Notes under the pieces: model-generated
Told to the model about the DNA's origin: nothing
Seen by the model: the letters and a program-made list of their open reading frames with translations, nothing else
The model's database searches: none
Program-made: the position numbers and the translations under genes
Source of the DNA: Escherichia coli
GTDB taxonomy: Bacteria > Pseudomonadota > Gammaproteobacteria > Enterobacterales > Enterobacteriaceae
DNA: 64,000 nt
Strand: one strand, 5' to 3'
Assembly (NCBI RefSeq): GCF_003334305.1
Contig: NZ_QOWS01000005.1
Part shown: in pieces, positions 6,214-6,251 of the stretch
Position numbering within the stretch: the stretch's first letter is position 1
How the letters are laid out: every line of letters starts with the position of its first letter

Positions 6214-6251
6214 ACGTACAGTATAGGATTTTTATACAGTGCACGGAAGTG
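6214..6251. promoter_or_regulatory. Tandem LexA (SOS) boxes upstream of ydjM
   Basis: aaCTGTcgatacgtACAGta (6214-6233) fits CTGT-N8-ACAG; an overlapping second box tataggatttttataCAGtg (6232-6251, CTGT half-site on the minus strand) is degenerate. Confidence 0.75.

Follow-up and report, generated by a model that had tools for sequence, protein, structure and literature searches.

The tandem LexA boxes upstream of ydjM in Escherichia coli and their arrangement across the Enterobacteriaceae

The ydjM locus and its two LexA boxes

The DNA analyzed here, referred to as the window, is a stretch of 64,000 nucleotides of the E. coli chromosome that is reversed with respect to K-12, with window position x corresponding approximately to position 1816400 - x of NC_000913.3. 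The part of the window that concerns us consists of three genes on the minus strand and an intrinsic terminator:

4075-5466, minus strand: tcyP/ydjN
5599..6189, minus strand: ydjM, the regulated gene, an open reading frame of 196 aa that is annotated in K-12 as b1728, with its ATG at 6189
6319..6350, minus strand: intrinsic terminator of hxpB (yniC), a 14-pair stem with 9 GC pairs and a T-rich tail, immediately following the stop codon of hxpB
6352-7020, minus strand: hxpB/yniC, the upstream gene, with its stop at 6352

Upstream, the control region of ydjM is bounded by the hxpB terminator. A 301-bp stretch around the boxes described below was found in 5424 of 5426 complete E. coli genomes, and the annotation was always ydjM / hxpB. 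When the region upstream of ydjM is compared with that of K-12 MG1655, a single SNP appears at window position 6307, ∼66 bp upstream of box 2, and the 38-bp two-box operator has the same sequence, position, and orientation as the operators of K-12 ydjM (b1728), with no differences inside the boxes. A search with Rfam found no RNA family in the hxpB-ydjM spacer; the other matches in the window at the gathering score were to RprA, RydB, the Phe leader, and STnc540 (listed at 45925-46032, 51636-51696, 17127-17251, and 21092-21250), which is expected for such a chromosomal region.

The ydjM product matches the NCBIfam model NF008651, "metal-dependent hydrolase", over its full length (residues 1-195, 374 bits as compared to a cut-off of 216) and the Pfam family PF04307 YdjM with an E value of 2.4e-35. 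From these matches, the product is predicted to be an inner-membrane protein of the YdjM family and a putative metal-dependent hydrolase. The assignment to PF04307 and NF008651, an inner-membrane family, agrees with the initial annotation, which had described an uncharacterized membrane protein.

Two LexA boxes are located in the 5′ region of ydjM:

6223..6204, minus strand: LexA box 1, which is the primary operator, with the sequence TACTGTACGTATCGACAGTT, lying at -34..-15 from the ydjM ATG
6241..6222, minus strand: LexA box 2, which is an auxiliary and degenerate operator, with the sequence CACTGTATAAAAATCCTATA, lying at -52..-33 from the same ATG

Both boxes are on the correct side of the gene, between -52 and -15 and downstream of the hxpB terminator, and the gap from box 1 to the ydjM ATG is 14 nt. 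The CTGT and ACAG half-sites of box 1 are both perfect, which makes the box an exact match to CTGT-N8-ACAG, and its spacer is poor. In box 2 the distal CTGT half is good and the half that adjoins box 1 reads CCTA, not ACAG. The 20-mers of the two boxes have a terminal TA (6223-6222) in common and their centers are therefore 18 bp apart. Taking a gammaproteobacterial SOS box to be a 20-bp site that resembles TACTG(TA)5CAGTA, contains the CTGT-N8-ACAG core, and has a heterology index like those of proven sites (below about 12-15), this is what was found at ydjM, with box 2 having only one intact half, and the layout is that of a strong and a weak box in tandem which overlap at their ends through common bases. 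A search of the 64-kb window with the full 20-mer LexA consensus, allowing up to three mismatches, gave no match; box 1 has five mismatches to the full consensus, none of which are in the half-sites. The description of this operator as "near-consensus" is accurate for the half-sites of box 1 and inaccurate for its spacer.

The initial annotation had read this region as two LexA boxes, a reading that is right in substance and mislocated by ∼10 bp. The string that it quoted, aaCTGTcgatacgtACAGta, is present as the plus-strand reading of box 1, at 6204-6223 instead of starting at 6214. Its range of 6214-6251 is displaced by the same ∼10 bp and holds the last 10 nt of box 1, the whole of box 2, and 10 nt outside both boxes. 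The same shift affects the distance of 25-45 bp upstream of the ATG, as box 1 actually occupies -34..-15 and box 2 -52..-33. The second, overlapping degenerate box that it had proposed is found at 6241..6222, with the TA overlap and the CCTA inner half. The statement that the boxes abut the start codon is true only for a GTG at 6201, and a 14-nt gap separates them from the RefSeq-style ATG at 6189. Only 48 of the 80 relatives analyzed below have a start codon (GTG, TTG, or ATG) at the place of this GTG, and RefSeq uses the ATG.

Published control, scores, and conservation of the boxes

The tandem LexA operators of ydjM are already known, the gene having been recognized as an SOS gene with two boxes since 2000. 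A passage in PMC4951493 credits Fernandez de Henestrosa et al. with an experimental report, from that year, of tandem LexA sites at E. coli ydjM. The gene has been treated as a classical SOS gene with a heterology index of 9.0, a 2.5-fold induction by AZT, and an 8.6-fold lower expression in the non-cleavable lexA3 background (PMC11228462). In a time course following SOS induction, the ydjM transcript increased up to about log2 2.6 (PMC11002266). In addition, ydjM has been placed among the SOS genes that have an SOS box and not merely a potential one (PMC6590174), and CACTGTATAAAAATCCTATA has been given as a LexA site at -52 of b1728 (PMC4576408). A gene with the YdjM motif is under LexA regulation in S. 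aureus too (PMC11442139), so SOS control of the YdjM family extends beyond the enterobacteria and the proteobacteria. The description of ydjM as inducible by DNA damage is borne out by these studies. The induction of ydjM is modest and does not by itself suggest especially tight repression.

Based on these reports and on the analysis below, it is very probable that the two boxes at 6241..6204 are the LexA operators known from the ydjM promoter of E. coli and that they exert standard SOS repression. Since the heterology-index and induction tests of this reading were already published with positive results, it carries little weight as a discovery. What the present analysis adds is descriptive, namely a pair of boxes with a fixed 18-bp spacing across the Enterobacteriaceae and an architecture that is that of recN boxes 2 and 3.

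The boxes were scored with a heterology index (HI) of the Berg-von Hippel/Lewis type, built from the 18 LexA sites in Table 4 of PMC3009722, none of which is from ydjM. Of the 127,962 20-mers that the two strands of the window contain, box 2 ranked first (HI 9.75) and box 1 ranked second (HI 10.2). The initial annotation had named an index above about 15 for both sites as evidence against its reading; both values are below this limit, as is the published E. coli value of 9.0 (PMC11228462). A leave-one-out analysis of the 18 proven sites gave indices from 0.6 to 12.8, and because 4 of these 18 sites score worse than either ydjM box, the ydjM scores are within the range of bona fide sites. The penalty of box 1 is entirely in the spacer (C8, G9, C13, and G14) plus T20, and as a consequence of its poor spacer the box ranks as a medium to weak operator. 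The penalty of box 2 is nearly all at positions 17-18, where TA replaces AG. A17 and G18 are invariant in all 18 reference sites, which means that the pseudocount understates the defect of box 2. Box 2 is a one-half site.

Chance expectation was estimated with 300 shuffles of the window that preserved its dinucleotides. A single site with an HI of 10.3 or less is expected 0.33 times per shuffled 64-kb window, and a pair of sites with an HI of 13 or less at an offset of 14-24 bp appeared in 1 of the 300 shuffles. The exact CTGT-N8-ACAG pattern was observed twice in the 64 kb as compared to 0.54 expected, an excess that, taken alone, is weak evidence. The second exact match, CTGTTGCCGATAACAG at 60399-60414 on the plus strand, was rejected as a LexA site, having a G/C-rich spacer and an HI of 21.5. 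These expectations of 0.33 and 0.54, together with a second match that is clearly not a LexA site, are what a chance palindrome with no regulatory role could draw upon. Such a palindrome is at odds with the geometry of the pair, its position before a gene, its conservation in 80 genomes, and the LexA-dependent induction described in the literature. The conservation and the published lexA3 data effectively refute it, and we assign it a negligible probability.

The third-best LexA-like 20-mer of the window, TATTTTTTATGAAAACAGCA at 29062-29081 on the plus strand (HI 10.85), lies in the ppsA-ppsR divergent intergenic region. It has one half-site only and probably arose by chance in A/T-rich DNA.

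Conservation was analyzed by scanning for the YdjM protein in one genome per species, which yielded 80 Enterobacteriaceae loci from ∼25 genera (Escherichia, Citrobacter, Salmonella, Enterobacter, Kosakonia, Raoultella, Cedecea, and others) with 84-99% protein identity. Both boxes are present at the exact 18-bp offset in 76 of the 80 loci, and the offset itself is 18 in 79. Box 1 is in the same place in all 80, with an HI of 12 or less in 79 and of 14.4 in the remaining one (L054). Over the 80 loci, box 1 has a median HI of 8.0 and box 2 one of 10.3. The half-sites of box 1 have an entropy of 0.11 as compared to 0.47 for its spacer; constrained half-sites around a free spacer are the footprint expected for a LexA site.

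The left half of box 2, ACTGTA, is retained in 78 of the 80 genomes, and the CCTATA half of the box has zero entropy, making it better conserved than the CTGT half. All 80 loci have an unchanged CCTATACTG (-38..-30), and CCTATACT at 6220-6227 on the minus strand, which is the "degenerate" inner half of box 2, is likewise invariant. In two loci (L012 and L026) the CTGT of box 2 is gone and CCTATACTG, CCTATACT, box 1, and a conserved block further upstream are all kept. The invariance of CCTATACT and its retention in these two loci suggest that it is constrained as a -10 hexamer (TATACT) and not by LexA.

These observations bear on the possibility that box 1 is the only working LexA operator and that box 2 scores well through an overlapping A/T-rich promoter sequence (TATAAA, TATACT), which is conserved as a promoter. 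The invariant CCTATA half, which forms TATACT, would be explained in this way, as would the two loci that keep CCTATACT and box 1 without the CTGT half, and the HI pseudocount caps the penalty for the missing A17 and G18. However, a promoter would leave the other half of box 2 unexplained: ACTGTA is exactly 18 bp from box 1 (79 of 80 offsets), and no -10 or extended -10 register was found that accounts for the CTGT. The recN gene has the same layout of a strong plus a half-degenerate box, and tandem sites at ydjM were experimentally reported according to the literature summarized in the passage of PMC4951493. We therefore consider a single working operator to be unlikely. With A17 and G18 missing and with its CTGT lost in two genomes, box 2 may contribute little.

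Among the divergent E. coli strains that were sampled, box 1 does not vary. In box 2, E. coli is polymorphic (T/C) at position 14 (window 6228), where C is the majority state in other genera. This polymorphism probably explains the ∼1150 of 5426 genomes that lack a 28-mer seed match to the 38-bp operator.

Candidate promoters, the repression model, and a conserved upstream block

Three candidate promoter elements and one conserved block coincide with or adjoin the boxes:

6220..6225, minus strand: candidate -10 TATACT (5/6 to TATAAT), across the box 2/box 1 junction and invariant in the 80 loci
6231..6236, minus strand: alternative candidate -10 TATAAA, inside box 2
GTTACA-17-CACTGT: candidate promoter with its -10 in the CTGT half of box 2
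6243..6274, minus strand: conserved 32-bp block upstream of box 2, at -85..-54 from the ydjM ATG, from an alignment of 80 distinct upstream regions

By eye, no acceptable -35 was found at 16-18 nt from TATAAA (6236..6231), and a scan of 6100-6400 for the consensus sigma-70 promoter gave no promoter at its threshold. No mapped ydjM transcription start was found in the supplements of PMC3415461, PMC4782308, and PMC8072944. We infer occlusion of the -10 from the position of the candidates relative to the boxes.

In the model that we consider most probable, repression works as follows. In undamaged cells, one LexA dimer would occupy box 1 (6223..6204) through its two perfect half-sites and a second dimer would occupy box 2 (6241..6222) through the distal CTGT half-site. 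Because the inner half of box 2 is degenerate, the second dimer would probably be stabilized by contact with the dimer on box 1. Cooperativity at ydjM is suggested by the one good half of box 2, the fixed spacing, and the layout in common with recN boxes 2 and 3. Between them, the two dimers would span the 38 bp at -52..-15 from the ydjM ATG. This stretch includes every conserved candidate -10, and the RNA polymerase open complex would consequently be blocked. Upon DNA damage, RecA-ssDNA filaments form and promote the self-cleavage of LexA, the operators are left empty, and ydjM is transcribed.

A different mode of repression would follow if transcription began at a distal sigma-70 promoter (-35 at 6312..6307, -10 at 6289..6284), ∼50 bp upstream of box 2, and the boxes, then at about +36..+73, acted as a roadblock. 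Genomic SELEX detected binding of the RpoD holoenzyme in the yniC-ydjM spacer, for which Shimada et al. predicted the constitutive promoter CTGAAA-17-ATTAAT (PMC3946193), and no strong promoter is seen under the boxes. However, the hexamers are a computational pick and the -10 is without the key A at position 2. The SNP at window 6307 (T here, A in K-12) weakens the -35 from CTGAAA to CTGAAT. The stretch from -130 to -91 is essentially unconserved outside Escherichia (entropy of 1.29 bits over the 80 loci), and the conserved sequence spans -85 to -15. Three candidates put the -10 under LexA and CTGAAA-17-ATTAAT lies in unconserved sequence, which argues that occlusion would be the more likely mode; we regard a roadblock as very unlikely.

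The block that adjoins box 2 on its upstream side approaches the LexA boxes in conservation, with a mean entropy of 0.44 as compared to 1.29 further upstream. Its consensus over the 80 loci is TTGTGACAAAGAGTTACA[C/A]CGTCACC[T/A]CTTCCG, of which GTTACA (6264..6259), CGT.AC, and CTT.C are invariant. In most genera the block has GTGAC/GTTAC/GTCAC repeats at spacings of 10 and 8 bp; in Escherichia the leftmost GTGAC is divergent. The block may be the -35 region of a promoter, the site of a second regulator, or both.

Four regulators were compared with the block by eye and rejected. The right half of a CRP site (TGTGA-N6-TCACA) fails. A CpxR site (GTAAA-N5-GTAAA, on the opposite strand) matches at 7/10 in other genera and E. 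coli is without the second repeat. The match to a sigma-32 promoter (CTTGAAA-N14-CCCCATNT) is only partial, and a literature search for ydjM and heat shock found no link to sigma-32. The RstA box, at 9/12 in the consensus of the other genera and 8/12 in E. coli, is unconvincing.

Induction of ydjM has also been reported upon arabinose-driven expression of TisB, a membrane toxin, with no DNA-damaging agent present (PMC11575346), which hints at regulation beyond LexA. The conserved block, the invariant CCTATACT, and the induction by TisB would all fit an activator, for example of the response-regulator type, or an alternative promoter; they allow such a LexA-independent second input, an idea that we hold only tentatively, as rather improbable. 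If true, a second input would couple the YdjM membrane hydrolase to envelope or energy stress besides the SOS response.

Comparison with known systems

The operators of Salmonella enterica ydjM (STM14_1605) provide a close comparison outside E. coli. Two boxes with HI values of 9.12 and 12.85 are reported at 14 and 32 bp from the ATG, corresponding to the box ends at -15 and -33 in E. coli, and the gene is induced 2.1-fold, with nalidixic acid as the inducer (PMC8072944). In our set, both boxes of the two S. enterica loci (L034 and L048) are at -34 and -52, as in E. coli. The differences between the two species are in the spacer bases and in the start of box 2, which is TACTGT in Salmonella and CACTGT in E. 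coli.

Paired operators upstream of other SOS genes have been described as well. The autoregulatory boxes of lexA resemble those of ydjM in being two adjacent boxes just upstream of the start codon. Unlike the ydjM pair, they do not overlap and their centers are 21 bp apart, or approximately two helical turns. Moreover, the lexA boxes have HI values of 4.9 and 7.8 and each has two usable half-sites, which is not the case for ydjM box 2. In colicin genes, strong and weak LexA sites overlap at their ends and LexA has been demonstrated to bind them cooperatively (Gillor et al. 2008, as presented in a passage of PMC4951493). These are plasmid-borne toxin genes, and the likeness to ydjM is in the strong/weak end-overlap in general, with cooperativity demonstrated for the colicin genes and only presumed for ydjM.

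The architecture of the ydjM pair is found again in K-12 recN, where boxes 2 and 3 (L082, -68..-9 from the ATG) also have a TA in common and centers that are 18 bp apart. In both genes, a strong box is paired with a half-degenerate box, and the degenerate half is the one that adjoins the strong box. The order is mirrored, with the weak box being promoter-distal at ydjM and gene-proximal at recN. Unlike ydjM, recN possesses a third box, which is very strong and lies another 22 bp upstream, and its strong boxes, with HI values of 1.7 and 6.1, are much nearer to the consensus than those of ydjM; the induction of recN is also larger, at 19-fold.
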